DNA of 64,000 bases, from positions 640,001 to 704,000 of the forward strand of contig OZ242214.1 in the NCBI GenBank assembly GCA_965206595.1. The letters are read 5' to 3'. Both the position numbers and the translations under genes were made by a program. Shown in pieces: positions 22,810 through 41,018 of the stretch; within the stretch, counting starts at the first letter, position 1, and each line of letters opens with the position of its first letter. Source of the DNA: Candidatus Latescibacterota bacterium (GTDB lineage Bacteria > Latescibacterota > UBA2968 > UBA8231). The notes under the pieces were generated by a model. It was not told where the DNA came from. It saw only the letters and a list, made by a program, of their open reading frames with translations, and did no database searches.

Positions 22810-23961
22810 TCATTTCGCACGATTCCCGGGCACGTCCAGGGACGGCTCGGGGAGATAGCGGACACCCCTGCCCTTTCCCTCCATACGCAGGAGACCGCTC
22901 TCGACGAGTCGCCGCAGCTCGCGGGCGGCGGTATAGCGGCTGACCGCGAAGATCCTGCGGTAGTCGGCGTTGCTCAGGCTCGGGTGCCGGAGGAAATGCT
23001 CGCGCAGGCCGGCAAGACGGGAGCTGGCGAATTCGGCGGTCCCGGGGATTGCATCCAGCGGCCCAGCCACCGGCTCGTTGTAGAGACGGACGGAGAACAC
23101 GCCGTCCTCCATCTCGACCTCCGGTTCCCGCAGAAAGCTCTCCTCCATCTCTTCGAAGATCCGCGCGACGCCCTCTCCGTCGCGCATGACTCCGGCATCG
23201 GCCAGCACCCGCACGATGAGCGGATTGCGGGTGGCGTGGGCAGGAAGGCGCTCTCGAAGCCTGGCGAGGGTCACCGGGGGAAGGAGGTCTCCGGGGCTCG
23301 ATACCTCCATCCGGTCTTCATAGAACCAGGCTTCCACTTCGCGCCCCTGGTACTCGTAGTCCCGGTGAGCGAAGGCGTTGACGATCGCCTCCTGCCAGGC
23401 GAAGTCGGGATATTCCGGGACCTCTTCGAAATAGAGGCCGTTGAGCTTTTCGGAGCGGCGGACTTGCTGGCCGGCGAGCCGGTGGGCTTCGGCAATCGCC
23501 TTCGCGAGCGGCGGGTCGGCGCGGCCGACCTGCGTCACGTTTCTTCGCCGGCCATGCTGGCGGCTCGTCCCGGCGACCCGAAACAGCCGCAGTCCGGCGC
23601 GCGGATGCCACCGGAGCGCGGGCGCCCTGGCGAACAGCAGGAGCGCGGCATTCGTGACTCGCCACTCCTGTGCGGACTGCTCGATCAGGCCGTAGTAGCT
23701 GAGTGCTTCCGTGACCGGGCGCGCTCCGACAGGGGTCCGGGCCAGGAATTCCCGGGCAAGCTCCAGATCGAGGTCGTCCAGGGTGGCGTCCGAGCGGAAG
23801 CGCTGCTCGTAACCGACCCGGCGGTAGACTTGCTTGCGTTCGTTGATGACTTCCTGCGGCTCTCGCGTCACGTGGTCGCCGCTTCTCGACAGCAGATGTC
23901 CGATTGCGTGCAGGTCGTCCTTGCCCTCCACCCACAGAATGGAGGTTTCCGGCTGAGACAT
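22810..23961 (-). CDS. Chimeric ORF: DUF3226/TOPRIM-like N-terminal stub fused to HATPase_c_4 plus HTH
   Basis: Starts ILWVEGKDDLHAI, a TOPRIM-like VEG motif, then switches to EAIVNAFAHRDY, VSSPG, RNP and a C-terminal wHTH (LSNADYR...ARELRRLV..G...G.GRG..Y). Confidence 0.75.
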   Translation of the reverse strand: MSQPETSILWVEGKDDLHAIGHLLSRSGDHVTREPQEVINERKQVYRRVGYEQRFRSDATLDDLDLELAREFLARTPVGARPVTEALSYYGLIEQSAQEWRVTNAALLLFARAPALRWHPRAGLRLFRVAGTSRQHGRRRNVTQVGRADPPLAKAIAEAHRLAGQQVRRSEKLNGLYFEEVPEYPDFAWQEAIVNAFAHRDYEYQGREVEAWFYEDRMEVSSPGDLLPPVTLARLRERLPAHATRNPLIVRVLADAGVMRDGEGVARIFEEMEESFLREPEVEMEDGVFSVRLYNEPVAGPLDAIPGTAEFASSRLAGLREHFLRHPSLSNADYRRIFAVSRYTAARELRRLVESGLLRMEGKGRGVRYLPEPSLDVPGNRAK

Positions 23962-25055
23962 CAGCGAACCTCGATTTCCTGCTCCACGGCGATCCCGATC
24001 TGCTCGCCCCGTAGAGGCACGGCATGATCGAGGTCAGCATGCACCTTTTGCAGGGAGACCTTCTCCGCAAGGCCGGGTCGAGACCTGACCAGTGTTCCGA
24101 GCCCGCGAATGCAGTCATGGCTGTGCGTCGTTGCGAATATCTGCACGTTGCATCTGTCCGCTACCTCGACGAGGAGCCGCCATACATCCTCGAGGACGGT
24201 CCAGTGCAGGCCGGAGTCGATCTCGTCGATCAGCAGGTATCCGTCCGTGGCGGAGACGAGGGCCAGGCGCAAAGCCAGCAGGCGGCGCAGGCCATTTCCG
24301 TAATTGCCGATCGGCATCCGGCGTCCTCGGTCTCGAAGGCCGACCAGGATCCCCCCGGGGCCGGGTCTGCCAGTCAGAAAGTGAATCGAGTCGATTTCGG
24401 GCACGAGAAGCCGCATGTCTTCTGCGATTTCACTCTCAAGGCCGTCAGCAAGAACTCTGTCCCATGCGTCTCCCATACGCTCGGATGCAAAGGATTCCAG
24501 CCCGAGAAAGCGAACCGGGGACGGGGAGAGGCCATTGCGCAAAGATGGCCGCCGCCAGAAGTCATGCAGGATCGTCCCGTCTTCGGCCATCGGTAGAGCG
24601 ACTGCCTCTTCCGCTGCGCCGAGCGCAATGCGCAGGCCGAACGCGGGTACGATCTCCTCGTCCTCATCGAGTTCCCGCCGCCGCACACGATTCCTTCCGG
24701 TCTCCCATAGATCGGCGTCTTCTCCCACTTCATCGACGGACAGTATCGTCGCCGACAATTCGCGATCGTCGTGGGAAGACAACTTGAAAGAGGCGCCGGG
24801 TTCGCAAGTGTGGCCGAAGAACAAGTGGGAGGCGTTCACTTCATGCCGTCGCCGATAGGAGATCCCTTCGTCATGGCGCTGGGCGACCTCGGAGAAAACA
24901 GAAAGGTGGCCGTTGGAAACGAGGAGCTCGACCGCTTCGAGAAGGGACGTCTTGCCGCAGTTGTTCTTGCCGACGAGAAGGTTCACGGTTGTTAGTTCGG
25001 CCAACTCGTAGGATTCGAAGGCGCGGAATCCACGCAGCGCGAGGGATTTCAGCAT
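23961..25055 (-). CDS. AAA_15/AAA_21 ABC-type ATPase
   Basis: Motifs VGKNNCGKTS, YGNG signature, LIDEIDSGLH and ATTHS. The stop overlaps the start of the next gene (TGATG). Confidence 0.88.
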   Translation of the reverse strand: MLKSLALRGFRAFESYELAELTTVNLLVGKNNCGKTSLLEAVELLVSNGHLSVFSEVAQRHDEGISYRRRHEVNASHLFFGHTCEPGASFKLSSHDDRELSATILSVDEVGEDADLWETGRNRVRRRELDEDEEIVPAFGLRIALGAAEEAVALPMAEDGTILHDFWRRPSLRNGLSPSPVRFLGLESFASERMGDAWDRVLADGLESEIAEDMRLLVPEIDSIHFLTGRPGPGGILVGLRDRGRRMPIGNYGNGLRRLLALRLALVSATDGYLLIDEIDSGLHWTVLEDVWRLLVEVADRCNVQIFATTHSHDCIRGLGTLVRSRPGLAEKVSLQKVHADLDHAVPLRGEQIGIAVEQEIEVR

Positions 25056-25167
25056 CCTGGTGCTACCTCGTTTCGGATCACGCAGGATCCGGGAGAGTCG
25101 ACCCTCATGTTGAGGACTCCCCAAGGGTACCGGGGGGGCCGCGCCTCGATCAAGACGCTGAAGGTCC

Positions 25168-28100
25168 TCAGAGACACGGGTCCGCTTCGTCTCTGGCGCG
25201 CTGCTTGTGCGCCATGGTCAGATGCAGGTCGTTGACCCGGTCGCCGGTGAACTCGCCGTTGCGCCAGAACCAGGGGAATTCCTCCCTTGGACGCAGTTCC
25301 TTGTTGTCTTCGGGGTCCCAGTCGTCGTCTTCAAGCCACGGAGGCTTCGACCGTTTGCCGCGGGTCAGGGGCTCCTTGCCGCGGTCCTTGCGCCAGTGAA
25401 TGTTCGGCTTGGAGCGCAGGATACCCGCGCCCTTCTTCCCGCCGGGGATGTCCTCCGCCATGAAGGGGCGGATGTTCAGGCGCACGCCGTCGTTGATGTC
25501 CGGCTCCCAGCCGACGGGCTGCTCCTTGAGGGGCTTCCAGCGGACGAATATGTCGAAGGGCGGTTCACCTTCGAGGATGGCGGAAAGGCGCTTCTGCAGC
25601 TCAAGGGCCGCGAGGAGACGGTCGTCCGCGCCGCCTTCGCCGCGTTTCACGCCGTCCTGCTGGCGGGTAATCCAGTCGCCGAGATAGCTGTAGGTCAGGG
25701 ATTCGAGAAGCTGGCGGCCCTTGCCACCGCCTTCGGCCAGCTTGTGGTAATTGACCAGGGCTTGGAAGCCGTCGCGACGGCCGTCATGGATGTGCCAGAC
25801 GAAGGGGCGGTGGTGAAACAGCTTGCAGTGTTCGTCGAAGAAACCATGGCGCAGCCAGTCATCGAGAGTCGCGCTGCCTGCCTCGGCAAGAAGCTTGCTG
25901 AGCACACCGTCGTTCCATTCGTCGCGGAAGGAGGATGCCAGCAGTCGGAGGAGCCGGTCTCCCGCGGGCGGCTCGCCACGTACGGAAGGGATGCAGACGA
26001 TGCCGTCCTCGTCGGCGTGGGAAAGCAGTTCCTTGCAACGTGCCACCCATTCGCGCTGCTCGTCGGCGAGCTCCATGCCAGCATCCTGCTCCGCGGGCCA
26101 GCGGTAGCCGAGCAGGCGGGCGACGGCGACCTGTAACACAGTGGGATCGGTGCGGTGAGGACCGTGAGCGGTCCATTTGCTGGTTTCGTCCCAGACGACC
26201 GAGCCGCAGGGGTGGCCGTGGAAGATCCACTGGGTGGGATCATCGGAGTATGGTAAGGGAAGGCCGTTGGGGTATCGTTCGGTTGCGATCTTGGTCCAGT
26301 GGTCGAGGTCGAAGGGGACTTTGGCTAGCGTGGCGTTGGTGACCTTGAGTGTCTGGTCGATGCGACGAACCGCCTTGTGGTACTCGGGGGAAGAGCAAAA
26401 GCACCAGATGGCAGGAAGGTGTACTGGATCCTTTGGAACAACCGTTGCGCAGTTCATATCCCAGGGACTTCCCATGTTCAAGGTGGCGGGAAGTTCTACC
26501 ATTTGTCGTACGGCTACGCCAAGTTTCTCCCAAGCAGCTTGTCCTTGGATTCGTGCGGCTCCAGATGATCCGAGATATCCCTTTCCATCTTCCCAAAGGA
26601 ATACTTGATGCCGACCACCGAAGTGCCCTGTTTCATCACCGGTCGACTGAAATGTCTTCCACGCACCGTAAATCCCATGCGTTTCCCAAAACGCAAATAT
26701 GAAGCGCGGGTTGTCTCCCGTTGTGATTCCCTGATAGGAGGATGTGTATTCATCGAGGAGACTGGTATCCGCTGCCTGATCCAATGTGACTCGCGCATCT
26801 GGGTTCTTTAACTGCCGGGCCTGCTCGACACCTTGGATGGCCGACTGCGCTAACCGCTCAGCCTTCTCGGCAGGGGTGCGATAGTCGGAAACGTCCAAGC
26901 CATACATCATGCCGGCTCGTGTCTTTTCGCTGAACCGCTTGCCCTTATGCTGGCGGGGATTGTCTCGGCTCAGAGTGAGCAGGACCGCCTTGACGACCTC
27001 GCCGCTGATGGTTTCGAACGCACCCGGGCCCAACCAGGCGAGCAGATGCCAAGTCTCCGTCTTCAGCAGTCTCTCCCGGAGTTTCTTGTAGCTCTTGAGG
27101 GACAGCCAGTTCTGCGGCAGCACGAGGCTGGCGGTCCCGCCCTCGGCACACAGCTTCAGGCAACGCTGCAGGAACACGGTGGCCAAGTCGTTCTTGGCGG
27201 CGGGGTATTTCGCTTGGCAGAAGTCGCGCAGGGCCTTGCCCTGCTTGCCGCGGGCGAGATAGGGCACGTTGGTGATCACGAGGTGATAGCTTCCTGCCAG
27301 CAACTCCGCCGCCCGCGCCATCCCCTGCGCGGCCACGGCCCGTTCCGCCTGCTCGTCGGTGGTCAGCTCCTGTTCGAGCACCGAGGCGAAAAGCGACCGC
27401 ACCGACTCGTAGTCGTGCTGAAAGAGATCCCCCTTCAGCTCACGTGGATCGATGAGGGAGCCGCGCTCCGGCGCCTTCCCGAAGAGATCGTGGAGCTCTT
27501 CCAGGCTGTTGCGGACCTGCGTCGATAACAGGTTGTCATCGACCCCGAAGAGGTTGCGATCGGCCGGCATCCCTCCGGCGTCTGCGGCCTGCTGCGCCAA
27601 CTCGATCCACTGTTCCTTCGTCGCGTTGGGGGCGAGGCCGGAGCAGGCGAGGTGCAGCTCGGGCAGAGGGCGGTACCCGCCCGCTTCGGGGTACGTCCAG
27701 GCGGCGAGAGCGAGGGCGAAGGCCGCAAGCTCGACGCAACGGGGGTCGAGCTCGAGCCCGTGCAAGTTCCCCCCCAACACCCCGTCGACGGCGTCGCGTA
27801 CGGAAAGCCCTTCCCGCTCCACGCGCATGGGAACCAGCATGGAAAGGGCGGCGACCAGGAAGTGACCCGAGCCGCAGCAGGGGTCGAGGATCTTCAGTTC
27901 TGCGAGGTGCTTCGGCCAGCTGTCGAAGGCACCGGCGGCAGGGCGCCAACTTTCCTGCTCCGCAGTGTCCTCACTTCGCACGAAGTGCAGGAAATCGAGG
28001 GGCGCGCCGGGGACCGCCGCCTTCCGGCGCAGAGCGGCTTCGGTGTCAGCTTCCCGCAGATCGGCTTCGCTCAGGAGGCGTGACGCCCACCACGCTCCCA

Positions 28101-28785
28101 GGGTGTTGTCGAGCAGGAAACTCACCATGTAAGGCTCGGTGAAGAGCTGCGTTACCGCAGGCAACTCGTCGGCGCCAACCTTGACCTCGGAACGATTGAC
28201 CTCGGCCTTCTTCCTAGACTGCCAGAACTGGTAGACCCAGCCCAGGGAATCGGTCGCCGTGAAGACCTCGTGCGGTAGACCCTCGACAAGCCCTTCCAGC
28301 TTCAGCCGGTGTTCCCGCGCCATGCTGACCTCGAAGGCCGGGTGATCTGGCCGAAATACCTGGGGCAGCATGCCATGGGCGAAGCGCGCGGCCATCGTCC
28401 ACTTGTCGGCACCCTCCTCCTTGCCTAGTTCCTCGCATTCTTCCAGGGTTACGGCGACGCCCAATTCCGGCTCGATAAGCAGTTGGTTCTCCGCGAGGAA
28501 ACGGGAGAACAGCATACCGTGCCAGTGCTCGTACGCGCATTCGTGCACCAGGTGCCCGATCTCATGACTTCTGGACTGCGGGTCCCGGGAGTCGCCGAGT
28601 TGCCGGGCGCGGGCGCGCAGCCGCTGGCGCAGCGCGCGCTGGCCGGGGCTCATGTGATCGTACGGTTCGCGGTAGTGCACGGCGAGCGTTTCCAGCGCCA
28701 CGCGGGCGCCGGTTTCCGCGACGTCTCGTGCATCCGCGATCGTCCGCTCAAGTTGTTTCCGCAGGTTTGGGGCCAGCGTCTTCAT
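25168..28785 (-). CDS. pglX: BREX adenine methyltransferase PglX (BrxX)
   Basis: Motifs LGWVYQFW, TQLFTEPYMV, motif I LDPCCGSGHF, motif IV-like TNVPY and C-terminal PDINDGVRLNIRPF. Located inside the brx operon. Confidence 0.92.
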   Translation of the reverse strand: MKTLAPNLRKQLERTIADARDVAETGARVALETLAVHYREPYDHMSPGQRALRQRLRARARQLGDSRDPQSRSHEIGHLVHECAYEHWHGMLFSRFLAENQLLIEPELGVAVTLEECEELGKEEGADKWTMAARFAHGMLPQVFRPDHPAFEVSMAREHRLKLEGLVEGLPHEVFTATDSLGWVYQFWQSRKKAEVNRSEVKVGADELPAVTQLFTEPYMVSFLLDNTLGAWWASRLLSEADLREADTEAALRRKAAVPGAPLDFLHFVRSEDTAEQESWRPAAGAFDSWPKHLAELKILDPCCGSGHFLVAALSMLVPMRVEREGLSVRDAVDGVLGGNLHGLELDPRCVELAAFALALAAWTYPEAGGYRPLPELHLACSGLAPNATKEQWIELAQQAADAGGMPADRNLFGVDDNLLSTQVRNSLEELHDLFGKAPERGSLIDPRELKGDLFQHDYESVRSLFASVLEQELTTDEQAERAVAAQGMARAAELLAGSYHLVITNVPYLARGKQGKALRDFCQAKYPAAKNDLATVFLQRCLKLCAEGGTASLVLPQNWLSLKSYKKLRERLLKTETWHLLAWLGPGAFETISGEVVKAVLLTLSRDNPRQHKGKRFSEKTRAGMMYGLDVSDYRTPAEKAERLAQSAIQGVEQARQLKNPDARVTLDQAADTSLLDEYTSSYQGITTGDNPRFIFAFWETHGIYGAWKTFQSTGDETGHFGGRHQVFLWEDGKGYLGSSGAARIQGQAAWEKLGVAVRQMVELPATLNMGSPWDMNCATVVPKDPVHLPAIWCFCSSPEYHKAVRRIDQTLKVTNATLAKVPFDLDHWTKIATERYPNGLPLPYSDDPTQWIFHGHPCGSVVWDETSKWTAHGPHRTDPTVLQVAVARLLGYRWPAEQDAGMELADEQREWVARCKELLSHADEDGIVCIPSVRGEPPAGDRLLRLLASSFRDEWNDGVLSKLLAEAGSATLDDWLRHGFFDEHCKLFHHRPFVWHIHDGRRDGFQALVNYHKLAEGGGKGRQLLESLTYSYLGDWITRQQDGVKRGEGGADDRLLAALELQKRLSAILEGEPPFDIFVRWKPLKEQPVGWEPDINDGVRLNIRPFMAEDIPGGKKGAGILRSKPNIHWRKDRGKEPLTRGKRSKPPWLEDDDWDPEDNKELRPREEFPWFWRNGEFTGDRVNDLHLTMAHKQRARDEADPCL

Positions 28786-28831: not shown

Positions 28832-29284
28832 TCACCGAAAGAAGGCGTAGGCGGCAAGACCAAAAAAGAGCAGGAAAAAGATGCATGGCAGGCCGACCTC
28901 GACGTTCGTCAGCTTCCAATAGCGGCTTCGTTCCTTGCCCTCGGCAAGCAGTTCCCATTCGCGCTTGAAGAAAGGGTAAGCCAGCTTCTCTTCGAGTTCG
29001 TGCAGGGCCTTGAACTTCCCTGAATTGAGCTGCCGGTAGGAACGGATCACGATATACCAGGAGACGGACAGCAACGAACCGATGGCTCCGGCTGTGAACA
29101 GAATGATCCCCACGGGGACGCAACCCACCCCGAACCTGAGCAAAGCGCCGAGAAACACCATCAGGCCGACGAGCAGGCTGACGTACAAGCGATTCGCTCC
29201 TTCCCGCCGTTGACTCACTTTATCGGCGAGTTCGGCGTGGAGCTTGTATATCTCCAGAAGCTCTGTTTGTCTTGGGTTCGTCAT
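28832..29284 (-). CDS. Small multi-TM membrane protein (RipA/octameric membrane protein-like), candidate pore effector
   Basis: Pattern EIYK...ADKVSQRR..AN..Y, two TM helices, W...IRSYRQLNSGKF...ELE..L...F..EW, then a third hydrophobic segment. Its ATG overlaps the TIR stop (TGATG). Confidence 0.75.
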   Translation of the reverse strand: MTNPRQTELLEIYKLHAELADKVSQRREGANRLYVSLLVGLMVFLGALLRFGVGCVPVGIILFTAGAIGSLLSVSWYIVIRSYRQLNSGKFKALHELEEKLAYPFFKREWELLAEGKERSRYWKLTNVEVGLPCIFFLLFFGLAAYAFFR

Positions 29285-29697
29285 CACGCCAGCTCCCTGA
29301 TAGGGCCTACGATGCTGTCGGTGTTCCATCCGACGATGCTGTCAGCCGCTTGTTTAACACGCACAGAGATTTTCTCGCTTCCCCATGGTTCGACTGCGAC
29401 TATCGGCTTTGATGGATCGAACGACTCCACTGCCAAGTCTATTTCCTTGTCTATCCACTTACTGTACGTAGCATAGACTCCGGCCATAATGAGCACAACG
29501 CTGCCGAAGGCCATTTTTGCTCGAATCGCCTCCCGCAACTTCGCATCTGTTCCTGCATGATAAATTGGATCATCTCGGGGTACCGAGTAGTCGGCAAACT
29601 TGAAGTAGCTCTTCGCTCGCAGGAGATTGACGAGCTTGTCGTCGTATGCATCCGAATAACTCCACGAATGGCTGATGAACAAGTGATATGGCTTCAT
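29284..29697 (-). CDS. ThsB-like TIR domain protein (MTH538/DUF1863)
   Basis: Motifs LFISHSW, DYSVP, catalytic-type SKWIDKEI and KPIVAV...IVGW. Start placed at MKPYHLF. Confidence 0.9.
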   Translation of the reverse strand: MKPYHLFISHSWSYSDAYDDKLVNLLRAKSYFKFADYSVPRDDPIYHAGTDAKLREAIRAKMAFGSVVLIMAGVYATYSKWIDKEIDLAVESFDPSKPIVAVEPWGSEKISVRVKQAADSIVGWNTDSIVGPIRELA

Positions 29698-29788
29698 GTC
29701 TTCATGGCTTCTTCCTTCGTTGATAGTCCCGAGGCTGCTAAACAGGACACCGTCGAGCCATTGCACGGACTCAGCATCAATGGGCGTG

Positions 29789-32050
29789 CTAAGCCTCTTC
29801 TTTCAGGATAGATCTGAGACGGGCAGCATCAACGATTCTACCGCATCGATCGAACGCCTTTAGCAGTAAGGGATGGACTCGGCGGCGTGTCTCTGAAGAC
29901 GAGTGAGTTTCCAACGGTGCTAAAATTTCAATTATGCGCTGATACGAACCCTTTCTTTCTAGAGCACGGGCAAGTGCAACGCAACATATTGGGTCATTGG
30001 GTTCCTCTTCGCGCGCTTGCTCGAACTTTTCGATGGCTCGATCAGTCGCATCGGGCTCGCCAGAGTCCCGCAGAAGCATGCCAAATTCCCGGCAGATGAG
30101 GGCTCGTTCATGGCCTCGGCTAGGAGCATTAGCAAAAGCACGCTCATAGAGGATCAATGCGCTTGCTTTGTTGTTCCTCTCATGTCGTTCGAATTCGCCA
30201 AACTCGCGCGCAGCTCTCCAGCTTCTCGGGTTCCTTTGCAAAGCCTGCTCGAACATCCGATCGGCCGCATCAAAGTCCCCTCGATGTCTTGCCGCCTTCG
30301 CGAGATCTACGAGCGACTCCTCACTAGAGCCGCGTCCGTGCCGAATCTCTCGAACAACCTGACGTTCCTGAGGATTCCTTATATCCGTTGCTTCATACCA
30401 ATCAGACAGCTTGCGGCGAATCTGTGGTTCGAGTTCCCTCTCTTTGATGACTTCGGAATATGCGAATGATCGAACAATAGGGAGTAAGGTGTAACAGTAA
30501 TCATTGAAATCGGGGTCGAAAAGCCGCTGTATCAGGGCGTCTGATATAAGGTCTTCAGTTGCATCCATGACGGTATGATGAGGATAGGAGCAGCCGATCT
30601 GAAGTGCCTCTGCCGAAATTGGCCGCTGAAAGAGAGAAAGCACTTGTAGAATTCGTCTCTCGTAGCCTGACATGTCATCAAATACTCGCCTGAAGCAGAA
30701 TTCAAGCAACTCCTCTCCTTTAGGACGTCTAAGTCTTTGAGTGATTTCGTCAGATTGACGCACCGCGTCCGCGGCCGACTTGAAATGAGTGAGAGACCAG
30801 CGAATCGCTAAGGGAATTCCATCGCAGGCACTTCCGATCACCTCTGCTTCCGAATTAGACAGTTCACCGATGTAGCTGAGTCCATTCTCATTGGCGAGAG
30901 ATTTTATGAAGGTGCGCGCCTCCTTGTCGGTCAAGGGTCCCAAATCAACGGGATGGACAGACACTCGTATTGTACTGCGCCTTGAAGTCGTGATCGCCCT
31001 TACGCCAACGGGTAGATTGTCGAGAAACCGCACGAGTCGCGGATCGTCGACCGTTTCGAGATTGTCGACGTAGAGAAGGCCATTGCTGTTCGTGAGAACT
31101 TCACGGGCAAGTACTTCCTTTTCGCTTGAATTAGCCGTCTTTAATTCTGGCAAGTCGAGAACCTCACTGATGGCCTGTAGGAGTCCTTCGAAGCTTGTGA
31201 TGCCCTGGCTCAAGGCTCGTATCCCCGATGATGTCAGCTCGCGATCCTTGGCAGTGACCGATATGATGAAATCAAATTGATTCTTGCTGTACGCCCGCAT
31301 GACCGCCCAAGTGGCGAGAGCAGTTTTCCCAGCACCTCCAATGCCAACAATCGCGGTCACCGCGGTTCGGGGATCTGAGAGCGCCGTCATGACGGCTCGG
31401 CAGGGTTCTTTTCTCTCTACAAAAACCTTGTACTCTGGTGCAAGGATGCGAAAGAACGGAACATCAACCTCATAGACTCGTCCGAGAGTGGGTGCAGATA
31501 GATTCCTTGAACTCTCAGCTGTTTCTTGCGGGTCGAGGACTTTGCTCTCGTCCCCGTCCCTGATTGCCGAATACCCCTTCCGGAAGCGGCACTTGCCATC
31601 GGTCTCTGGGGCGTCACCAGAGAATCTTACAAGAACGGGCCCCCTTGGAGGTATCACCGCGAGACCGAGGTATCTTTGATCTGCTTGGATGAAGTGGCGG
31701 TGGTATTCGACCCAGACTCGATCGCCGAGGAACCGACGCAGTTGATCATTGACCAGCTTGCTATCCAGCCGCCTACTGCAACCATGGAAGGTGAAATCAG
31801 TATCGCTTACCCCGAAAATTAAAACACCACCTTGCTTGTTGTGGAAGGCCAGTACGTCCACGGCCACCTCCGCCCACGCGTTGTGATTATGCTTCCCACG
31901 ATGCGGGCAATCGGCTTTGTAGTCCCAAAGGTCTGACTCAGTCCGGAAACCATGACGGACTACAGGCGGATTCCCTTCAAACATCAGGGCTGAGACGCTC
32001 TCGAGATCTCGCTGTTTGATTGCTTTCTCAAGGTCTTTATTTCTGTCCAT
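29789..32050 (-). CDS. NLR-like protein: Schlafen/AlbA_2 - NB-ARC (STAND) - TPR
   Basis: N-terminal ESDLWDYK...LAFHNKQGGVLIFGV. NB-ARC motifs GIGGAGKT, YVDNLE, ITTSR and GIPLAI. C-terminal TPR-like helices. Confidence 0.88.
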   Translation of the reverse strand: MDRNKDLEKAIKQRDLESVSALMFEGNPPVVRHGFRTESDLWDYKADCPHRGKHNHNAWAEVAVDVLAFHNKQGGVLIFGVSDTDFTFHGCSRRLDSKLVNDQLRRFLGDRVWVEYHRHFIQADQRYLGLAVIPPRGPVLVRFSGDAPETDGKCRFRKGYSAIRDGDESKVLDPQETAESSRNLSAPTLGRVYEVDVPFFRILAPEYKVFVERKEPCRAVMTALSDPRTAVTAIVGIGGAGKTALATWAVMRAYSKNQFDFIISVTAKDRELTSSGIRALSQGITSFEGLLQAISEVLDLPELKTANSSEKEVLAREVLTNSNGLLYVDNLETVDDPRLVRFLDNLPVGVRAITTSRRSTIRVSVHPVDLGPLTDKEARTFIKSLANENGLSYIGELSNSEAEVIGSACDGIPLAIRWSLTHFKSAADAVRQSDEITQRLRRPKGEELLEFCFRRVFDDMSGYERRILQVLSLFQRPISAEALQIGCSYPHHTVMDATEDLISDALIQRLFDPDFNDYCYTLLPIVRSFAYSEVIKERELEPQIRRKLSDWYEATDIRNPQERQVVREIRHGRGSSEESLVDLAKAARHRGDFDAADRMFEQALQRNPRSWRAAREFGEFERHERNNKASALILYERAFANAPSRGHERALICREFGMLLRDSGEPDATDRAIEKFEQAREEEPNDPICCVALARALERKGSYQRIIEILAPLETHSSSETRRRVHPLLLKAFDRCGRIVDAARLRSILKEEA

Positions 32051-32168: not shown

Positions 32169-33380
32169 TCAATCAGCCGCTTTGCATGCGGGGAGGTGGC
32201 GGTCACCTTCCAACCCGCCCCTCATCCAAAGTTCCCCGAGACTGTATCGCTCAAGCCAGCAGGCGAGCTCCTCTTTATCAAGGCGTTTCAACCCAGTTTG
32301 TCCTTCACGTTTTTTGCATACGACGATGCTTTCGGGCATCTCTCTGAGCGCATCGACGATTATTTCCGAATGGGTGGTGACGATCAACTGGCACCGCTCC
32401 GATGTCTCGCGCAGGATGTCGGCGAGGCCCGGAAGGATGTCGGGATGGAGACCCAGTTCCGGTTGCTCGATACAAACGAGCGGCGGCGGGTTCGGGTGGC
32501 AGAGAATGGCGAGCAGGCAGAGGTAGCGGATGGTACTGTCCGATAGCCGCATGGGGGGAACGATGATGTTGCCCTCCTGGAGAATCACCTGGACGGTGCC
32601 GCCCTCTATGATCACGTCGAAGTCCACGATGTCTTCGTAGAGATCCCGCAAGGCATGCAGGAACTCTCCCCTGGCCTTTGGTTCTCGTCTCAGACGGTTC
32701 AAGACCAAGCCGAGGTTATGGCCGCCCTCCATCAGGAAATCGTTAGGCAGGGCGGCGTCCTGGGGCCGTTGCGGCGGCGTGTTCCGGCCGAAGGACCATT
32801 CACGATACAGCCGTATGCGGGAGTACATGTCCCCGAGCCGAGTAAGTTCCGGGTAAAAATCGGGATCCCGGCGCTGGGCAAGCACGGACTGCTGGGGGTT
32901 GAGGTCGCCGGTGCGCAACTGTCTCTGGATTCCGTCCTTGCAATTCAGGACCGCGTGGCCACCGTGCCGCTCGAAGTAGATACAGGGCTTGTCGTGGCCG
33001 GGATATGCTCTCTCGGTTTCTATCTGTTCGTCAGTCAACTCGAAACGTTGCCCCTTCTCCGTAAAGGTGAGGCGGTGGCGCAGGGCCTGATTGCCATTCG
33101 GGTTGTCCAGAACCGCCTCGACGTGAGCAGACCGTGCCTGGGGTTCCCCTTTCCATATCCAATCGCCGACACCGCCGCCGTCAATGATGGGCGTCGTCAA
33201 CTCCTTCGGCGCGGCTTTCAACAGCCCAATTGCCTCTATGAGATTCGATTTGCCGGACCCGTTCGGACCGATCAGCACGTTGAGCGGCCCGAGATCCAGT
33301 TCCTGCTCGTTCGGGCCAAACGAGAGTATGTTCTTGAGCTTGATTCGGTGCATGAACATCGTGCTTGCTACCTCAACCAA
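32169..33380 (-). CDS. AAA_21 ABC-type ATPase with degenerate catalytic motifs
   Basis: Walker A IGPNGSGKSN and H-loop VTTHS are intact, but the signature reads LSDST and Walker B reads IEQPE. The start may be ATG 33359. Confidence 0.85.
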   Translation of the reverse strand: MVEVASTMFMHRIKLKNILSFGPNEQELDLGPLNVLIGPNGSGKSNLIEAIGLLKAAPKELTTPIIDGGGVGDWIWKGEPQARSAHVEAVLDNPNGNQALRHRLTFTEKGQRFELTDEQIETERAYPGHDKPCIYFERHGGHAVLNCKDGIQRQLRTGDLNPQQSVLAQRRDPDFYPELTRLGDMYSRIRLYREWSFGRNTPPQRPQDAALPNDFLMEGGHNLGLVLNRLRREPKARGEFLHALRDLYEDIVDFDVIIEGGTVQVILQEGNIIVPPMRLSDSTIRYLCLLAILCHPNPPPLVCIEQPELGLHPDILPGLADILRETSERCQLIVTTHSEIIVDALREMPESIVVCKKREGQTGLKRLDKEELACWLERYSLGELWMRGGLEGDRHLPACKAAD

Positions 33381-33422: not shown

Positions 33423-35150
33423 TCACCCGGGCTGCCGAATCAGCGCGATCAGCGCTGCCGTAAATCCTGCGATTTCTTCCGGGGTCCCTTCGTTCGCGAC
33501 TTTTCGTAGCGCCCTTCCTATTTCTTTGTCATTGTCCTTGTGCATTGCCACGTAATTCACCGCACTTTGCAGGTCCAGCGGTTTTGACCCTGATGGTGTC
33601 TCCGGCAACGGCTGCGAAACCGTTTGATTCGGCATACGGTTGCTGTCCGTTTTTTGGCCGCTTGTTTCTCCCGGTTGAGGATCGCGGGCCACAGACGACG
33701 CATGCGCCGTGGACTGTGTTTCCGGACCTGCGTCGATTTCCGTGGGATGGACCTCGAGACTTCCGCGACGTTTGATCAGCAACGTCTGCCCCGTTTCCAG
33801 CCTGATCCACTGCCATTTGAAACCGCCGCTCGGAGGCCCAATTGGTTCACTCATCCCTTTGGCGCCACCCAAGCCCCGGACGTGCAGTGCTCCATCCTTG
33901 GTGCAAGTCAATGCGTCGGCGCGTGCATTCGGTGCCGACCAGTGCAGCAGGTCCGGATACCGATGCCCCTTTGGTTGGCCGCCCTCCGCGATCTTCGCCA
34001 ACCGGTCCGCCTCGGATCGAAACAGATCGGCATCGAGGACCTCGATTGGTGGATCCGATTCCGAGGTTACACCAAGGATCGCGCCCGCCATTGTCGCAAT
34101 GGTGTCGGTATCCGTACCAATTGCGTTAGCGGCCACGCGCAGGGCTTCCTCCGGCCGCGTTTCACACCATGTCAAACCCACCGCCGCAACTGCCGTGAGC
34201 ATGCCGCTACCTCGCCGTTCCGGCTTGCGGAGCCCCAGGCGATCAATGATCAGGGAGTAGGAGGAAGGGTCGGCGCTCGCAGGGTTCATGCCTGCAACTT
34301 GAATTGCCTCCCTGCACTCGACAATCGCCTTGGACCACGCCTCATCGAAGGCACCCGACTCCCGCTCGAAGGCGGTTCGCCAATAGCTTCCAGTCTCAAT
34401 GTCGCTCTGCATGATGTCAGGCAGGTTCGCGGCAACTTCAGTGACCGCCAGCAGGTCTTCCGGCGACGGATGGCGCCCGGTGGCCATGGTATGCGCGAGC
34501 GACAAGGCGTGAAGAACCGCACCTAACAGCCCGGTCGGATGGGAGTGGGTACAGACCGTGTTGCGGACCACGTCCGGAAGGAATTCCTCCGCCTCGAGCG
34601 AGCGCGCCGCCCACACATGCGGTTGAATCCGCATCGCCGCGCCGTTGCCGCCCGACTCGGTCCAACCTTTGAAACTGTTGGCAAACCACGATGTCCTGGG
34701 TTTGGTCAGGTTGAGCGCTGCGGCGCTGGTGGACTTTCCTGCACCAAGCGCATAGCCAAGCCATACCGGAAGTTCGACCTTGGCGAATGCCTCGACGTCG
34801 AAACCGTCGGGACGAATGGCCCGACCTGTGGCAAGACGCAATTGGGTGTCGTCGGAATAGCAGCCCACGGGAAGCGAAGCCGTGATGCCTGCGCGACCGC
34901 CGATCCGCCGCTTCCATGCGACAGGCTTGCATAGGGGCGCGCCGCCGGTTCGTCTTCTGAGTCCGGCCTCGTTGGTCATTTCACTGATCCACCCCAGGGC
35001 ATCGCCGTACGCGGCCCACAACGATGATCGCCGGATTTGGCCGTCTCGGCCGGCGACCTTGGTTGCCACATCTCGCGGCTGGTCGGGGACGCGGCTCACC
35101 GCTGTCGTGGCTCGGGCGTGGGGGTGACGTTCTGTAACGTGCGCATCCAA
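33423..35150 (-). CDS. ADP-ribosylglycohydrolase (ARH/DraG family) with C-terminal extension
   Basis: Motifs AYGDALG, YSDDTQL, GNGAAMR, THSHP and GTDTDTIATMAGAILG. Begins about 10 bp downstream of brxC. Confidence 0.9.
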   Translation of the reverse strand: MDAHVTERHPHARATTAVSRVPDQPRDVATKVAGRDGQIRRSSLWAAYGDALGWISEMTNEAGLRRRTGGAPLCKPVAWKRRIGGRAGITASLPVGCYSDDTQLRLATGRAIRPDGFDVEAFAKVELPVWLGYALGAGKSTSAAALNLTKPRTSWFANSFKGWTESGGNGAAMRIQPHVWAARSLEAEEFLPDVVRNTVCTHSHPTGLLGAVLHALSLAHTMATGRHPSPEDLLAVTEVAANLPDIMQSDIETGSYWRTAFERESGAFDEAWSKAIVECREAIQVAGMNPASADPSSYSLIIDRLGLRKPERRGSGMLTAVAAVGLTWCETRPEEALRVAANAIGTDTDTIATMAGAILGVTSESDPPIEVLDADLFRSEADRLAKIAEGGQPKGHRYPDLLHWSAPNARADALTCTKDGALHVRGLGGAKGMSEPIGPPSGGFKWQWIRLETGQTLLIKRRGSLEVHPTEIDAGPETQSTAHASSVARDPQPGETSGQKTDSNRMPNQTVSQPLPETPSGSKPLDLQSAVNYVAMHKDNDKEIGRALRKVANEGTPEEIAGFTAALIALIRQPG

Positions 35151-35159
35151 GTGCTCGCC

Positions 35160-38100
35160 TCAACTGATTACAATGGGCCCTTGCTTCACTTCCTGCAGCA
35201 GATCCTGCTCCGTCTTCCTGACCCATGCGTTGACCTCCTCCGCCGTGCGCAGGGTTGGGCTCTCCAGTTTCACGTGACGGATCTCCGGCTCGACGAGCTT
35301 GTCCGCTTCTGCCCGGGCTTCCGCGAACAAGTGCGGGAGGGCCGCCGTGCGCGTCCGCCAGCCGTCGAGGGAAATGCGTCCGAGAGACTCCAGCACTTCC
35401 TGCTCGCTTCCGGTCGCGCCTGTCGATGCCTTCGAAATGTGCAGTCGCGCGAAGATCTCTTCGCGATATTTCGGCTCGATCCGGCCCCAGCTCTCCGTCT
35501 CTTTCAGGCGTTTCTGCTCCACTTCATATGTCTCGGCGTAACGCTTCTGAGATTCTGCTAGCTCAGTCCGCAGCGCATTTGTCAGATTCGCCGCGAGCCC
35601 GGGCACCGGGTCCGATGCGTCGAGCAGGCGCCGGTCAGCGACGATCGCTTCGATCTGGAGCTTCGCCTCCTTCGCTGGGTCCAGACCTTCGGCGTGGCGG
35701 GCAAGGGCTCGCAAGCGTTCGAACCCTGGAAGACGCTCGCTTCTTACCCTGCCTGCCTTGGTCCAGTCCTTGAAGTTAGCCGCGAGCTGGTCGTGCTGGC
35801 CCAGAACGGCCAGGAGCTGCTCGTTGCCGGCAAGCGACTGAAGGTCCGACAGATGGCGGGTATCCGGGCGCTCTGGCAGCGGGGCATCACCGCCCGCGTT
35901 CCGGGCAAGCTCCTCCAGCTTTTGCAACAACCGGCCTGCGGCCTCGGACTCCTCGTTCGGCTTGCACTCGATTTCCGCTGTCTGGAAGAGACTGCGCAGC
36001 TTCAGGCGCTGCCGGGTATCGATGGTAGCGCTCTCGATCCGGAAGTCGGTGTTCGCCACTTTCCCCTGATCGAGGCCCCGTGACTTCAGCGCCACGCCGT
36101 TCGCGGATGCCCGCAAGTGCCCGGTTTCAAAGAGGCTGATGAGGGCGGCGTCGATGGCGTCGCGCGGCCAGCCAAAGGGCGGACCGGAGAAGTGCGAACG
36201 GACCTCCTTTCCCTTTTTTCCGGAACCCACCGACTCCATCACGCCTGAGCACACCGGGTGCTCCTCGGTCTTGCCGCTGTATTCCAGGGCTTCCAGCGGG
36301 TGCTCCGCGCCCCGGCGGGCGCGCTCGATCACGTTCGGCCACCGGTGGTCGTCGGCGTCCCCGAAGCGGTGGAAAAGCCGGTCAAGGGAGGCATTCGCAG
36401 CTTCCGTTGTTTTCTCAGACAGGCTCAACTCCAATCGTTCATTACCTCCGCCCTGGAAAACTTTTGCGCCGTTGATGATTTCGGCCACCAGCGCCTTCTG
36501 CGCGTTCTCCGCCTGGGCGTGGCGGGTCTCCATTCCCTGGCGCGCCTCGGTGCCTTCGTCCCCTGCAGGCACGCCCTTGAAATCAAGCGTCTCCCTTGCG
36601 GCACTGCTTTCGGCGATGCGGCGGGCGAGTTCATCGGCGCGGGTCCTGGGCACGAAAACGTGGAGCACGGGGCTGTCAGGTCCGGCCGCGCGCGCGTCGG
36701 CGATCACGCTGCTCTCATCGGCTCCCCATCCATCCCGTATCCACACCGGGATGTCGAGGGCGCCTTCCGGCGGGGGCTCGGCACCGAAGTGCAGCGAGAG
36801 CTTCCGAGGCTCCTTGGACCTTCCGTGAGGCAGCCGCACGGACTTCACGGCATCCTGCACCGCGGAGCCGAGGAGCTGGCTGCGCCTGCTGCTCATGCTC
36901 GCCAGATCGTTGGCAAGCCGGCTCTGCCTGTTGCGGAACTCGGCTTCCCATTCGCTGCTCTCCCGTGTCTGCAGGCTGTACTCGTCCTCGAGCTTCATCA
37001 GCGTGCCCGCTTCCACTAGCTCCTGGAGGAGCGCCGGGAGCCGTCCGCGCAGGGCGGCCCCGTCCCTGGCCAGGTCCTCCACCAACAGATCCGCCAGCGC
37101 CTCGGCAGTGGCACGCACTCCGATGTCGGCGCCGGCTTCGCGCGGGAGCCTGCGGATCAGGAACACCAGGGCGCAGAGCCGGGACTTGAGCTCGCCATCG
37201 GAGGTGCCGTCCCGCAGCTTGACGATGGTCTCGTGAAGCTCGCGCAGCAGCATGCCGGAGTTCAGCAGGTTGGTCTCCAGCTCCTCGAACAGGAAGTTCG
37301 CCGACACCACCGTACCGAGCGGTTTATCGGCCGTGCGGCGGATGGCTTCGTAGACGATGTGCAGCTGCGTGCGCAACTGACCCGCCATCCCCGCGCGGTC
37401 GACGGCGCGCAGGGTGTGTTCCCAGAAGCGCCGGCGAACGGGAAGCAACGGGTAATCTTCCACCAGGACCTGCTTGTCCTCGCCGCGGGGGCTGATGCGG
37501 CTGCCCACGAGGTGACGGTCGATCTCTCCGGCGCTCGCTTCCATGGCAGCCTCGATGTTGTTGACACGGTCCTGACGTTTCGCCAGGACGACCCGCCGGA
37601 TCACGGTCTCCACGTCCTGGTCGGACAACTCCACGTTGATCCTGAAACGGCCCTGGAGACGCTGCAGCGCCGCGGTGCCCGACAACGCCGTCTGTCCGGT
37701 GCCCACGAAGAGCAGGCGGTCGCCGAACCGCTTGCTGCAGGCTTCGACCAGATCCTGGACGATATAGGAGCGGTCGGTGCCCTCTCCGATGTACTGTTGC
37801 ACCTCGTCGAGGACGATGACGGTGCAGGGCATCCCGCCGTCGGGAGCCAAGGTGTCCTGCAATGCGGCGATGAATCCGTCCGTGGTGATGTCATTTGGCT
37901 TTGGAAACTGGGCGCGCAACGCCGCCCTGGCTTCCCTTTCGCTGTTGGCGAAGCCGGGGTCCGCGGCGAGCAGTGCCTTGGCGATGAGCGGGCTCACGTA
38001 GAGGTCGTTCAGCTCACGCCGAAACTCCCGGCCTTCCTTTTCGACAGCATCACGTACCTGCTGGAAGATGTCCTCCTTCTTGAGCCAGAGGCAGAACTGC

Positions 38101-38600
38101 GCCTGGGGGTAGCTCTCGGGGAGTTTCGCGGATTTGAACACGATCCCGAGCAACGCGAGCCGGACGCTATCCCCGGCGCCGTCGAGCGTTCCGGCCGCGG
38201 CGTGCAGTCCATTCCCCCGCCGGCCGAGGGTGGAGATCTCGGTCAACAGTTCCTGCACGTCGGCCGGCAACCGGGCGAGGCCCCGGGCGTTGGCGCCGTC
38301 CTCGGGGAAGGTGTGGTCCGTCCACAGGAAGCGCAGCATCTTCGCCAGGTGCGACTTGCCGCTGCCGAAGAAACCGCTGATCCAGGCAGCCGGCTGCTCC
38401 GGCTGACCTTGGTGGCTGATGTAGGATTCCAGGATGCGAACGAGCCCGCTGCGGTACTGTCCTTCGCAGACGAAATGCTCCAGCTCGAAGCGGAGCGTGC
38501 GGCGCTCCTCGTCGGTGGCCGCGTCGGTCACGGCCGCGACGCCGTTGTTCAGGAGCGTGATCTTGTCGGGATCTTTCTGGTAGACCGCCCGGTTCTTCAT
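35160..38600 (-). CDS. brxC: BREX P-loop ATPase BrxC
   Basis: Motifs WISGFFGSGKSH, VLDEVQQYIG, TGQ, LQGRF, YPLLP and PPFGWPRD; 1146 aa. Confidence 0.95.
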   Translation of the reverse strand: MKNRAVYQKDPDKITLLNNGVAAVTDAATDEERRTLRFELEHFVCEGQYRSGLVRILESYISHQGQPEQPAAWISGFFGSGKSHLAKMLRFLWTDHTFPEDGANARGLARLPADVQELLTEISTLGRRGNGLHAAAGTLDGAGDSVRLALLGIVFKSAKLPESYPQAQFCLWLKKEDIFQQVRDAVEKEGREFRRELNDLYVSPLIAKALLAADPGFANSEREARAALRAQFPKPNDITTDGFIAALQDTLAPDGGMPCTVIVLDEVQQYIGEGTDRSYIVQDLVEACSKRFGDRLLFVGTGQTALSGTAALQRLQGRFRINVELSDQDVETVIRRVVLAKRQDRVNNIEAAMEASAGEIDRHLVGSRISPRGEDKQVLVEDYPLLPVRRRFWEHTLRAVDRAGMAGQLRTQLHIVYEAIRRTADKPLGTVVSANFLFEELETNLLNSGMLLRELHETIVKLRDGTSDGELKSRLCALVFLIRRLPREAGADIGVRATAEALADLLVEDLARDGAALRGRLPALLQELVEAGTLMKLEDEYSLQTRESSEWEAEFRNRQSRLANDLASMSSRRSQLLGSAVQDAVKSVRLPHGRSKEPRKLSLHFGAEPPPEGALDIPVWIRDGWGADESSVIADARAAGPDSPVLHVFVPRTRADELARRIAESSAARETLDFKGVPAGDEGTEARQGMETRHAQAENAQKALVAEIINGAKVFQGGGNERLELSLSEKTTEAANASLDRLFHRFGDADDHRWPNVIERARRGAEHPLEALEYSGKTEEHPVCSGVMESVGSGKKGKEVRSHFSGPPFGWPRDAIDAALISLFETGHLRASANGVALKSRGLDQGKVANTDFRIESATIDTRQRLKLRSLFQTAEIECKPNEESEAAGRLLQKLEELARNAGGDAPLPERPDTRHLSDLQSLAGNEQLLAVLGQHDQLAANFKDWTKAGRVRSERLPGFERLRALARHAEGLDPAKEAKLQIEAIVADRRLLDASDPVPGLAANLTNALRTELAESQKRYAETYEVEQKRLKETESWGRIEPKYREEIFARLHISKASTGATGSEQEVLESLGRISLDGWRTRTAALPHLFAEARAEADKLVEPEIRHVKLESPTLRTAEEVNAWVRKTEQDLLQEVKQGPIVIS

Positions 38601-38614
38601 TGCCGATATCCTTC

Positions 38615-39172
38615 TCAGTCTTCCTGCGCAGTAATCGGAACCGCGAGGTAGTTCCAGCCGTCCCGTGCGTCCAGCAGGCGATAGTTGCCGTCTTCATACT
38701 CGCCGGGGAAGAACACGGCGATCCGGCCTCTGACATTCCCCTCTACCGCCTTCATCAGCTCCGACACCCGGACGAAACCGAAAAGGGAAGCAATGCCGTA
38801 GACCCCGACGACCGTGTGGTCATCCGCTTCCGGCCCCGTCAGCTTCTGGCGTACAAGTCCGGCCACGTGCGCCAGGAATTCGTCGTCGAGCTTGAGCTCC
38901 AGGTCTTGAGGGGACTCGAAGTAGCTGTCCCGGTAATCCAGGGCAGCCATCCACTCGGCGAAGGCAGCGGTCAGGTCGCATTCGATCCAGCGGTGCCCCG
39001 CCTCCTTGGTCGCCAGCTCGAAGAGGGTCATGCGCGCCCGCAGCCGCCGCTCGTCCGTCCTGTCGTACTGGATGAATATGGTGCGCTGCGCCCCCGCCAG
39101 ATCCTTCTGCCATGGAAGGGCGATGTAGCGTTTGTAGCACTCGGCGAGTCTGTCGATGCGCCCCACGATCAA
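38615..39172 (-). CDS. brxB: BREX protein BrxB (DUF1788)
   Basis: C-terminal FFPGEY...YRLLDARDGWNYLA. Lies between brxA and brxC. The start may be GTG 39166. Confidence 0.9.
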   Translation of the reverse strand: MIVGRIDRLAECYKRYIALPWQKDLAGAQRTIFIQYDRTDERRLRARMTLFELATKEAGHRWIECDLTAAFAEWMAALDYRDSYFESPQDLELKLDDEFLAHVAGLVRQKLTGPEADDHTVVGVYGIASLFGFVRVSELMKAVEGNVRGRIAVFFPGEYEDGNYRLLDARDGWNYLAVPITAQED

Positions 39173-39981: not shown

Positions 39982-40173
39982 GGGTGGGAAGGTATCGTTT
40001 GATTTGAGGGCGTCAACTTTCGCCGGCTGGTTTGCCGGCGAGTTCGATGCGTGTAGTTCGGCCGCGAATCGACGGTAGTCGACTGCTTACGCGGAGGGAG
40101 TCGCGGTATCTTGCGAAATCCGGCCTGTTTATTGTATTAGAAGAGATGATGCAACAAGAAAGGAGACATTTTC

Positions 40174-40990: not shown

Positions 40991-41018
40991 AGCCGCCTCG
41001 GCAATCACACAGCTATTC

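Follow-up and report, generated by a model that had tools for sequence, protein, structure and literature searches.

A putative Thoeris-like TIR-8xMP cassette and a separate Schlafen-NB-ARC-TPR protein in a BREX operon of Candidatus Latescibacterota

The subject of this work is a block of three genes within the type 1 BREX (bacteriophage exclusion) operon of a Candidatus Latescibacterota bacterium, located in a 64-kb stretch of contig OZ242214.1 (assembly GCA_965206595.1), which is called the window hereafter and within which all coordinates are counted. The block consists of a gene for a Schlafen(AlbA_2)-NB-ARC-TPR protein (here abbreviated NLR; 29789-32050, minus strand, 753 aa, assigned by its Pfam domains), a gene for a ThsB-type TIR protein (29284-29697, minus strand, 137 aa when counted from the ATG common to the homologues; Pfam PF08937) and a gene for a membrane protein of the Pfam family 8xMP (28832-29284, minus strand, 150 aa; PF24838). 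We consider it probable that this 3.2-kb block is cargo which was inserted just upstream of pglX, and that it comprises two independent defence candidates, a Thoeris-like cassette made of the TIR and 8xMP genes and a single-gene Schlafen-STAND NLR. The TIR-8xMP pair is a real and widespread Thoeris-like cassette, putative in function. A preceding sequence-only reading of the window had described three co-oriented, AT-richer genes at this place, and this description is correct. All three lie on the minus strand, and the GC content of 0.517-0.541 over positions 29000-31999 (1-kb windows) compares with about 0.65 in the flanks (0.657-0.662 at 27000-28499, about 0.64 beyond 35000). The identities which it had assigned to the three proteins (Schlafen-NB-ARC-TPR, a TIR of the WIxxE type and a multi-TM protein of 150 aa) likewise agree with the Pfam matches.

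The TIR-8xMP pair and its predicted function

Relatives of the window 8xMP protein were collected with a 17-member profile, which retrieved 463 of them from one-genome-per-species contigs, and the best 80 of these 463 were surveyed together with 10-kb flanks (the 8xMP loci in the following). A TIR gene was found directly upstream of the 8xMP gene in 56 of the 80 loci using the window TIR as query (phmmer) and in 57 using a TIR profile, with several of the TIRs found by the profile being in pieces. In the window, the stop codon TGA of the TIR gene (29286-29284) and the ATG of the membrane protein gene have their A in common, and the TGATG overlap reported from the bare sequence thus exists, with one shared base. 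Overlaps of stop and start codon are present in 48 of 53 resolvable loci (4 nt in 28, 1 nt in 19 and 8 nt in one), an arrangement in which the two genes of the pair would be translationally coupled. Within the phylum of the window genome, PF24838 scores above its cut-off in 21 of 168 genomes, and a TIR-like gene adjoins the 8xMP gene in 16 of the 23 phylum loci with a membrane protein match, two of these loci being views of one and the same place. The pairs of the phylum include 8xMP proteins only 26-38% identical to that of the window, and the weakly scoring genes upstream of those divergent members passed PF08937 in all four cases tested. The 8xMP family is spread over phyla at 55-72% identity, and the pair is common in uncultured, apparently host-associated bacteria. 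A homologue of the NLR was not found within 10 kb of the 8xMP gene in any of the 80 loci. As the survey from the 8xMP side and that from the NLR side (see below) agree, it is the TIR-8xMP pair which represents the conserved unit.

Some loci deviate from the simple two-gene layout. A second, divergent PF08937 TIR-like gene of about 135 aa lies in convergent orientation directly downstream of the 8xMP gene in nine mostly Chloroflexota loci (about positions 10490-10990, minus strand, in L048, L054, L059, L061, L067, L071, L072, L079 and L082), two of which, L061 and L082, have no TIR gene upstream. Tandem TIR genes precede a single 8xMP gene in L009, L028, L046, L058 and L070, and in L007/L030 a TIR-like gene is located between two 8xMP genes.

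The window TIR belongs to the Pfam family ThsB_TIR (PF08937) with 58.5 bits at a cut-off of 21.2, and it is matched by the PADLOC model for ThsB with an E-value of 6.4e-11. A sequence search against the PDB yielded MTH538 (9.5e-6). The structure model of the TIR (predicted score in the local distance difference test, pLDDT, 84.8) resembles the folds of DNPH1 (1.3e-4), MTH538 (8.5e-4) and EcThsB (2e-3; TM 0.62/0.55). The motif W81-I-D-K-E85 is present, the helix S-K-W-I-x-K-E containing it is about 90% conserved and all 59 aligned TIRs have E85, which we take to be the catalytic glutamate by analogy with the family. From this, the window TIR appears to be an active enzyme, an N-glycosidase of the ThsB family, for which NAD+ would be the presumed substrate.

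Its partner covers positions 1-135 of the 136 positions of PF24838 with 114.6 bits (cut-off 30). The structure model of the 8xMP protein (pLDDT 84) consists of helices at 4-51, 58-100, 105-115 and 119-149, and the hydropathy profile displays three hydrophobic helices, of which two form a hairpin near 34-80 and one lies at 128-150. As the N-terminal helix and the loop 81-127 are rich in lysine and arginine (6 and 11 residues, respectively), both are probably cytoplasmic. The invariant or near-invariant residues Y13, K14, R26, R27, S82, K90, E98 and E109 are all positioned on predicted cytoplasmic helices. An octamer is implied by the name of the Pfam family. When four copies were modelled together, the score was 0.48 (individual runs 0.61, 0.39 and 0.48), compared with 0.00 for the best of three controls, with a pLDDT of at least 74 and a contact agreement of at least 83%. 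In the calibration of the score mark for such models, made with two copies and not four, 20 of 30 solved homo-pairs and one of 23 single chains attained it. The contacts of the four-copy model run along residues 4-47 and 89-113, which are the conserved surfaces of the protein. The model, which exceeds its controls, supports a self-association of 8xMP.

Searches beyond the family itself were unproductive. Neither PADLOC nor NCBIfam contains a model matching the window 8xMP protein, the sequence search against the PDB gave nothing below an E-value of 0.19, and Foldseek with the structure model found no PDB entry at E<=0.001. A wide search with VIA-align reached a best Z of 9.4 for generic helical hairpins, a value below the noise level of this tool for helical proteins. 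The ESM Atlas returned unnamed clusters, with PycTM at 0.75, a value often reached by chance according to the tool, as nearest named match. In Pfam, down to E<=10, only PF24838 was above its cut-off; DUF4158 and C19orf12 scored below theirs, and neither is a Thoeris effector family. Literature matches for '8xMP' concerned, judging by the titles of those listed, unrelated subjects, and the term 'octameric membrane protein' was not found together with TIR. A search for fused forms gave four longer 8xMP proteins. One single sequence of 859 aa (P0247) carries an N-terminal 8xMP fused to an ABC ATPase of the SMC_N/AAA_21 type. A second candidate (P0244) was rejected as a TIR-8xMP fusion, since it reads like a frameshifted read-through of the C-terminus of a TIR. 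In one BREX locus (L038) the gene directly after 8xMP encodes a HEC-01A-type ATPase.

Most likely, the analysis suggests, the TIR-8xMP pair is a Thoeris-like abortive infection module with a putative effector family. The TIR protein would sense the infection and use Glu85 to turn NAD+ into a signal derived from ADP-ribose. This signal would then bind to the basic cytoplasmic face between the protomers of a ring of three-helix 8xMP proteins, and the ring would breach or depolarise the membrane, whereby the infection would be aborted. Several observations weigh against this interpretation. Of the fold matches of the TIR model, that to the nucleotide N-hydrolase DNPH1 is slightly better than that to EcThsB, and the substrate of the TIR may be other than NAD+. 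The fold of 8xMP matches only generic helical ones, and the protein matches no model of a validated Thoeris effector (Pfam to E<=10, PADLOC). The NLR gene and the pair are contiguous and of equally low GC content, so that a joint arrival of all three genes appears possible. Furthermore, the 8xMP gene occurs without a TIR gene in 23-24 of the 80 loci, and those solo 8xMP genes which were found in Poribacteria display a median dN/dS (ratio of non-synonymous to synonymous substitution rates) of 0.04 over 45 pairs (dS 0.14-2.6), which means strong purifying selection. This maintenance of TIR-less copies under selection suggests that 8xMP is active in some way, or has some partner, apart from its cognate TIR, and the P0247 fusion points in the same direction.

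Ten of the TIR-less loci are syntenic in Poribacteria, with an intact 8xMP gene following the gene for a Cu-ATPase (at about 10001-10460 in L083, L087, L089, L091, L093, L096, L101, L102, L104 and L110). The same place is occupied by a whole Hma system with an embedded TIR-8xMP pair in two further loci (L106 and L107) and by the pair alone in another (L103), and because of these two Hma-bearing loci the solo genes resemble survivors of a stepwise loss. In L110, where the 8xMP gene and one neighbour are left, C-terminal residues of a TIR can still be read in frame upstream. Other PF08937 genes are present in five of five such Poribacteria genomes. Out of eight PF08937 places, four score 15-29 bits on the profile of the cassette TIRs, on which the window TIR reaches 212 bits, and four do not match it; none of the eight is near an 8xMP gene, and they belong to distant clades (five genomes).

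A reversal of the roles within the pair would account for part of these observations. In that case the TIR-like enzyme would be the toxic effector, acting as NAD+ depleter or nucleotide N-glycosidase, and 8xMP would be its sensor, anchor or antidote, or the two would constitute a toxin-antitoxin-like addiction module. The DNPH1 nucleotide hydrolases at the top of the fold matches fit with this idea, as do the gene overlap, which is typical of toxin-antitoxin pairs, the retention of TIR-less 8xMP genes by purifying selection and the P0247 fusion, which suits a modular membrane part. However, the window TIR does not contain any additional sensor or regulatory domain detectable with Pfam. Moreover, the preprint of Yirmiya et al. 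(10.64898/2025.12.03.692087) describes that the tested TIRs of the ThsB family produce signals and that the small ring-forming membrane proteins beside them are the effectors in Thoeris types II, V and VII. Reversed roles are hence judged unlikely, and an effector function of 8xMP is preferred.

Nesting of the cassette in methylation-based defence operons

The genetic contexts of the 80 8xMP loci were called by gene clustering and scans with hidden Markov models. In 28 of them the TIR-8xMP pair is situated in or beside the genes of BREX, Hma, type III or type IIG restriction-modification (R-M) systems. Five loci place the 8xMP gene inside BREX (L031, L078, L036, L040 and L038, the last one without TIR), and in L031 and L078 the order is brxC-TIR-8xMP-pglX with nothing else in between. 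In another five (L032-L034, L106 and L107) the pair is within Hma, either flanked by hmaA and hmaB or next to them. Type III-like res and mod genes enclose or adjoin the pair in 10-12 loci, and six loci have it beside a type IIG/DrmMI-like enzyme. On a quick tree of concatenated TIR and 8xMP sequences with 45 rows, for which 36 of the 80 loci without a one-piece TIR or a full 8xMP match were left out, the contexts are clustered, with 13 changes compared with a mean of 19.7 after shuffling and none of 200 shuffles being as low. Despite this clustering, closely related Poribacteria cassettes are found in differing contexts, and there are many changes of context on the tree. The TIR and 8xMP genes form a mobile cassette which is nested in defence operons based on methylation, and we read this nesting as mostly positional.

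This positional view has to be weighed against the idea that the cassette guards its host system, comparable to PrrC, which monitors EcoprrI. The cassette would then be set off by a phage anti-restriction protein which puts BREX, R-M or Hma out of action, and such a PrrC-type role is discussed for embedded systems in a preprint (Payne et al., 10.1101/2024.01.29.577857). In line with this idea, the systems around the pair are of four kinds and all carry a methyltransferase, and in 11 of the 80 loci, as well as in the window, the gene that immediately follows is the one for the methyltransferase. Additionally, when the window is compared with L031, L036 and L040, the BREX proteins have diverged to a similar extent as the pair (63-72% identity). 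Yet in L078 the pair is 58-64% identical to that of the window and BrxC, at 40%, is far more diverged. As many as 52 of the 80 loci lack any of these systems within 10 kb, and the tree requires at least 13 context changes, with close relatives in Poribacteria differing in context. Unrelated cargo is also found at the same sites, as seen in two relatives which carry the same BREX lineage, namely G167 from the same family and G103 from the same genus as the window genome. A guard function therefore appears rather improbable, and no more can be credited to its fuller form, in which the cassette, as a dedicated back-up located just upstream of the methyltransferase gene of BREX, Hma and type III R-M operons, would read the state of the complex and kill via the TIR-made signal and the membrane ring. 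If true, the PrrC/EcoprrI logic would have a counterpart here that works through a small molecule.

The solo genes of Poribacteria could also be taken as a sign that 8xMP, or even the entire pair, serves a housekeeping purpose in the membrane and not defence, as they occupy a fixed place after the Cu-ATPase gene in ten loci. However, in L106 and L107 this very place harbours an Hma system that contains the pair, the solo genes resemble survivors of decay, the family is patchy (21 of 168 phylum genomes) and occurs across phyla at 55-72% identity, and 8xMP genes are repeatedly part of defence operons. A housekeeping role is thus very unlikely.

The Schlafen-NB-ARC-TPR protein and the BREX host operon

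The third gene of the block encodes a protein with matches to SLFN_AlbA_2 (6e-9, residues 38-137), NB-ARC (9e-10) and TPR families (575-714). It thereby has a STAND-type layout, in which an N-terminal effector, a central P-loop NTPase and a C-terminal repeat sensor are combined in one protein. Among 8000 scored proteins, 464 belong to its family at E<=1e-10, many of them being 50-60% identical over 97-100% of the length. The residues E38-x4-D43-x-K45, the Walker A motif G236-T243 (GIGGxGKT) and D329/E332/D335/D336 (DNLETVDD block) are invariant in 15 NLR sequences. In the phylum of the window genome the protein is nearly absent, with one distant match in the 167 other genomes. PADLOC provided no Avs or NLR model for it, the only match being PDC-S50 over the Schlafen part (E-value 0.0097).

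The best 80 of 105 metagenome relatives of the NLR were surveyed for their surroundings, of which at least 1 kb was available downstream in 44 and upstream in 49 loci. The TIR and 8xMP profiles did not match in any of these 80 loci. The NLR is separate from the TIR-8xMP pair, its neighbour only in the window among the loci surveyed. As it carries its own effector head, it does not need a downstream partner. With its intact Schlafen motif Ex4DxK, the NLR is most likely, as far as can be read from its residues, a self-contained sensor-effector and a candidate defence protein. The TPR arm would sense a phage product, upon which an oligomerisation driven by the NB-ARC domain would switch on the Schlafen RNase, which would probably cut tRNA.

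The sequence-only reading had instead favoured a single pathway, in which phage sensing by the NLR activates the TIR and the TIR then opens a membrane pore, and had compared this to the NLR/TIR/pore logic of plants. A single pathway is in agreement with the contiguous and co-oriented genes, their common GC dip, the lack of a terminator-like site above chance between the three genes and the absence of the whole block from G167 and G103, but it is hardly credible given that the two surveys found no NLR within 10 kb of 8xMP (0/80) and neither TIR nor 8xMP at the NLR loci (0/80), that the NLR has an intact effector domain of its own and that L031 and L078 have only the pair between brxC and pglX. 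What is left of that proposal is the connection of a TIR to a membrane effector, which the conserved pairing (56 of 80 loci) makes the best reading. The neighbourhood survey which it had called for thus separates its components, with TIR and 8xMP co-occurring and the NLR not, and neither the NLR as trigger nor a plant-like logic is supported.

The block is surrounded by a BREX type 1 core consisting of brxB, brxC, pglX, pglZ and brxL, all co-oriented on the minus strand. The upstream flank is formed by brxC (35160-38600; PADLOC BrxC PDLC02489, E = 0, positions 1-1145 of 1146), preceded by brxB (38615-39172; PADLOC 1.7e-73). Directly downstream of the pair follows the methyltransferase gene pglX (25168-28785; PADLOC PDLC02528, E = 0; Pfam Eco57I and N6_Mtase), and further downstream pglZ (15522-17846; PADLOC 1.7e-298) and brxL (13471-15525; BrxL domains 1.9e-126) are located. 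An open reading frame of 270 aa at 39169-39981 has no Pfam match, and brxA is unconfirmed in the window. At 40000-41000, just outside the operon on the side of brxB, the GC content falls a second time (0.53).

The placement of the three genes between brxC and pglX had been recognised before, but two further genes of the same gap had been missed. An ADP-ribosylglycohydrolase-domain (ARH) gene (33423-35150, minus strand, 575 aa; PF03747 2.4e-31) and a HEC-01A-type ABC ATPase gene (32169-33380, minus strand, 403 aa; PADLOC PDLC04177 8.1e-167, Pfam AAA_21 1.9e-31) also sit between brxC and the NLR gene, so that the gap holds five genes, not three. PADLOC gave no match for the ARH protein. The TOPRIM/DUF4276 partner of HEC-01 is missing in the window, where the 118 bp between the HEC-01A and NLR genes are too short for it; it is kept in the relatives L038 and G103, the latter recognised by eye from its sequence. 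Four additional cargo genes lie on the minus strand between pglX and pglZ, which encode a PDC-M38A/AbiLi-like ABC ATPase (23961-25124), a HATPase_c_4 protein (22810-23961), a homologue of Ppl (19833-22658; PADLOC 1.1e-122) and a Schlafen/AlbA_2-HATPase_c_4 protein (18575-19966). With these four genes in the pglX-pglZ gap, the BREX operon of the window acts as a small defence island.

The two relatives illustrate how the block may have arrived. In G167, the order is brxC (82% identical), an ARH gene with an internal deletion, HEC-01A (84%), a gap of about 210 bp and pglX; the gap contains one small open reading frame, noted by eye, and none of NLR, TIR and 8xMP. In G103, brxC (90%) is followed by a 76-aa remnant of ARH, HEC-01A, a 212-aa gene resembling by eye the DUF4276/TOPRIM partner, a 538-aa ATPase-like gene and pglX. 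Neither genome is among those of the phylum with an 8xMP or NLR match. The differing contents of G167, G103 and the window characterise the site just upstream of pglX as variable. No insertion scar could be defined, as the similarity between G167 and the window starts only a few bases before the start of pglX. A scan of the block for promoters and terminators gave counts at chance level, and the repeats bordering it were short, chance-like matches. The NLR gene and the TIR-8xMP pair, being contiguous and of the same low GC content, may have arrived jointly, which would be a matter of history and not of function. Among the three related BREX loci (window, L215 = G103 and L216 = G167), ARH is intact only in the window. 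The PglX match of L216 (5906-11210) is split over 9138-11210 and 5906-7642 with about 1.5 kb in between, and the gene may be interrupted. A role of ARH as regulator of the TIR signal was considered and rejected, since ARH is present in none of the other 80 loci and is part of an older brxC-ARH-HEC-01A arrangement.

Comparison with known defence systems

Defence cargo inside operons for BREX, Hma, DISARM and R-M, including HEC-01 (ABC ATPase and TOPRIM), has been described by Payne et al. (10.1101/2024.01.29.577857). The window resembles these embedded systems in that its cargo is co-oriented and located between core genes, and HEC-01A is also part of this cargo. However, PADLOC-DB 2.0.0, which includes the candidates of that study, has no model matching 8xMP. 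For the block, PADLOC recognised ThsB in the TIR and had models neither for 8xMP nor, in the form of Avs or NLR, for the Schlafen-NB-ARC-TPR protein.

For prokaryotic Schlafen proteins the motif Ex4(E/D)xK has been reported (PMC13056530), and the NLR of the window fits this motif. Where the main text of that report names frequent Schlafen fusions, however, this architecture does not appear. A related case is bNACHT34, which is described in a preprint (10.1101/2022.07.19.500537) as a bacterial NACHT protein with a Schlafen head. Both proteins have an N-terminal Schlafen RNase on a STAND NTPase with a repeat sensor, and they differ in the NTPase, which is of the NB-ARC type in the window and a NACHT in bNACHT34.

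With respect to Thoeris, the TIR-8xMP pair has a TIR of the ThsB type, the conserved glutamate and a conserved partner gene in the same operon. Judged by Pfam (to E<=10) and PADLOC, however, the partner is outside the validated effector families (SIR2-SLOG, Macro-TM, DUF2270, DUF6650, SLATT and others). The preprint of Yirmiya et al. (10.64898/2025.12.03.692087) annotates 29 putative Thoeris types, reports the validation of seven new configurations and predicts further putative effectors, which appear in its Fig. 1C, including proteins with transmembrane helices. Neither '3TM' nor '8xMP' was found in its main text. The novelty which the sequence-only reading had ascribed to the candidate module was overstated in view of the TIR systems with small ring-forming membrane effectors described there; what distinguishes the window is a predicted effector of PF24838 rather than of DUF2270, SLATT or Macro. 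Noteworthy features of the pair are the repeated nesting beside the methyltransferase genes of four defence systems and the TIR-less copies surviving under strong selection. As an intact pair within a complete-looking BREX operon, the window represents a good source for cloning.

The type V system described in the same preprint consists of ThsB and ThsF (DUF2270), a three-helix effector which was modelled as a ring with basic pockets between the protomers and is activated by 3'cADPR. Like the TIR-8xMP pair, it is an operon of two genes which encode a TIR of the ThsB type and a small protein with three membrane helices, and the basic pockets of ThsF have a counterpart in the conserved basic residues of 8xMP at the modelled protomer contacts. 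The two proteins are set apart by their Pfam sequence matches, with the window protein belonging to PF24838 and giving no match to PF10028 (DUF2270) at E<=10. None of the 168 genomes of the phylum yielded a DUF2270 match. In types II (Macro-TM) and VII, the latter of which uses a SLATT effector, an ADP-ribose derivative made by the TIR activates an oligomerising membrane effector, as is proposed for the pair, whereas the window 8xMP carries neither a Macro nor a SLATT domain according to Pfam. Should the proposed mechanism apply to the pair, TIR signalling would gain 8xMP as a further effector family, and with its 150 aa the protein could serve as a convenient model for the gating of a membrane ring by an ADP-ribose-derived ligand.

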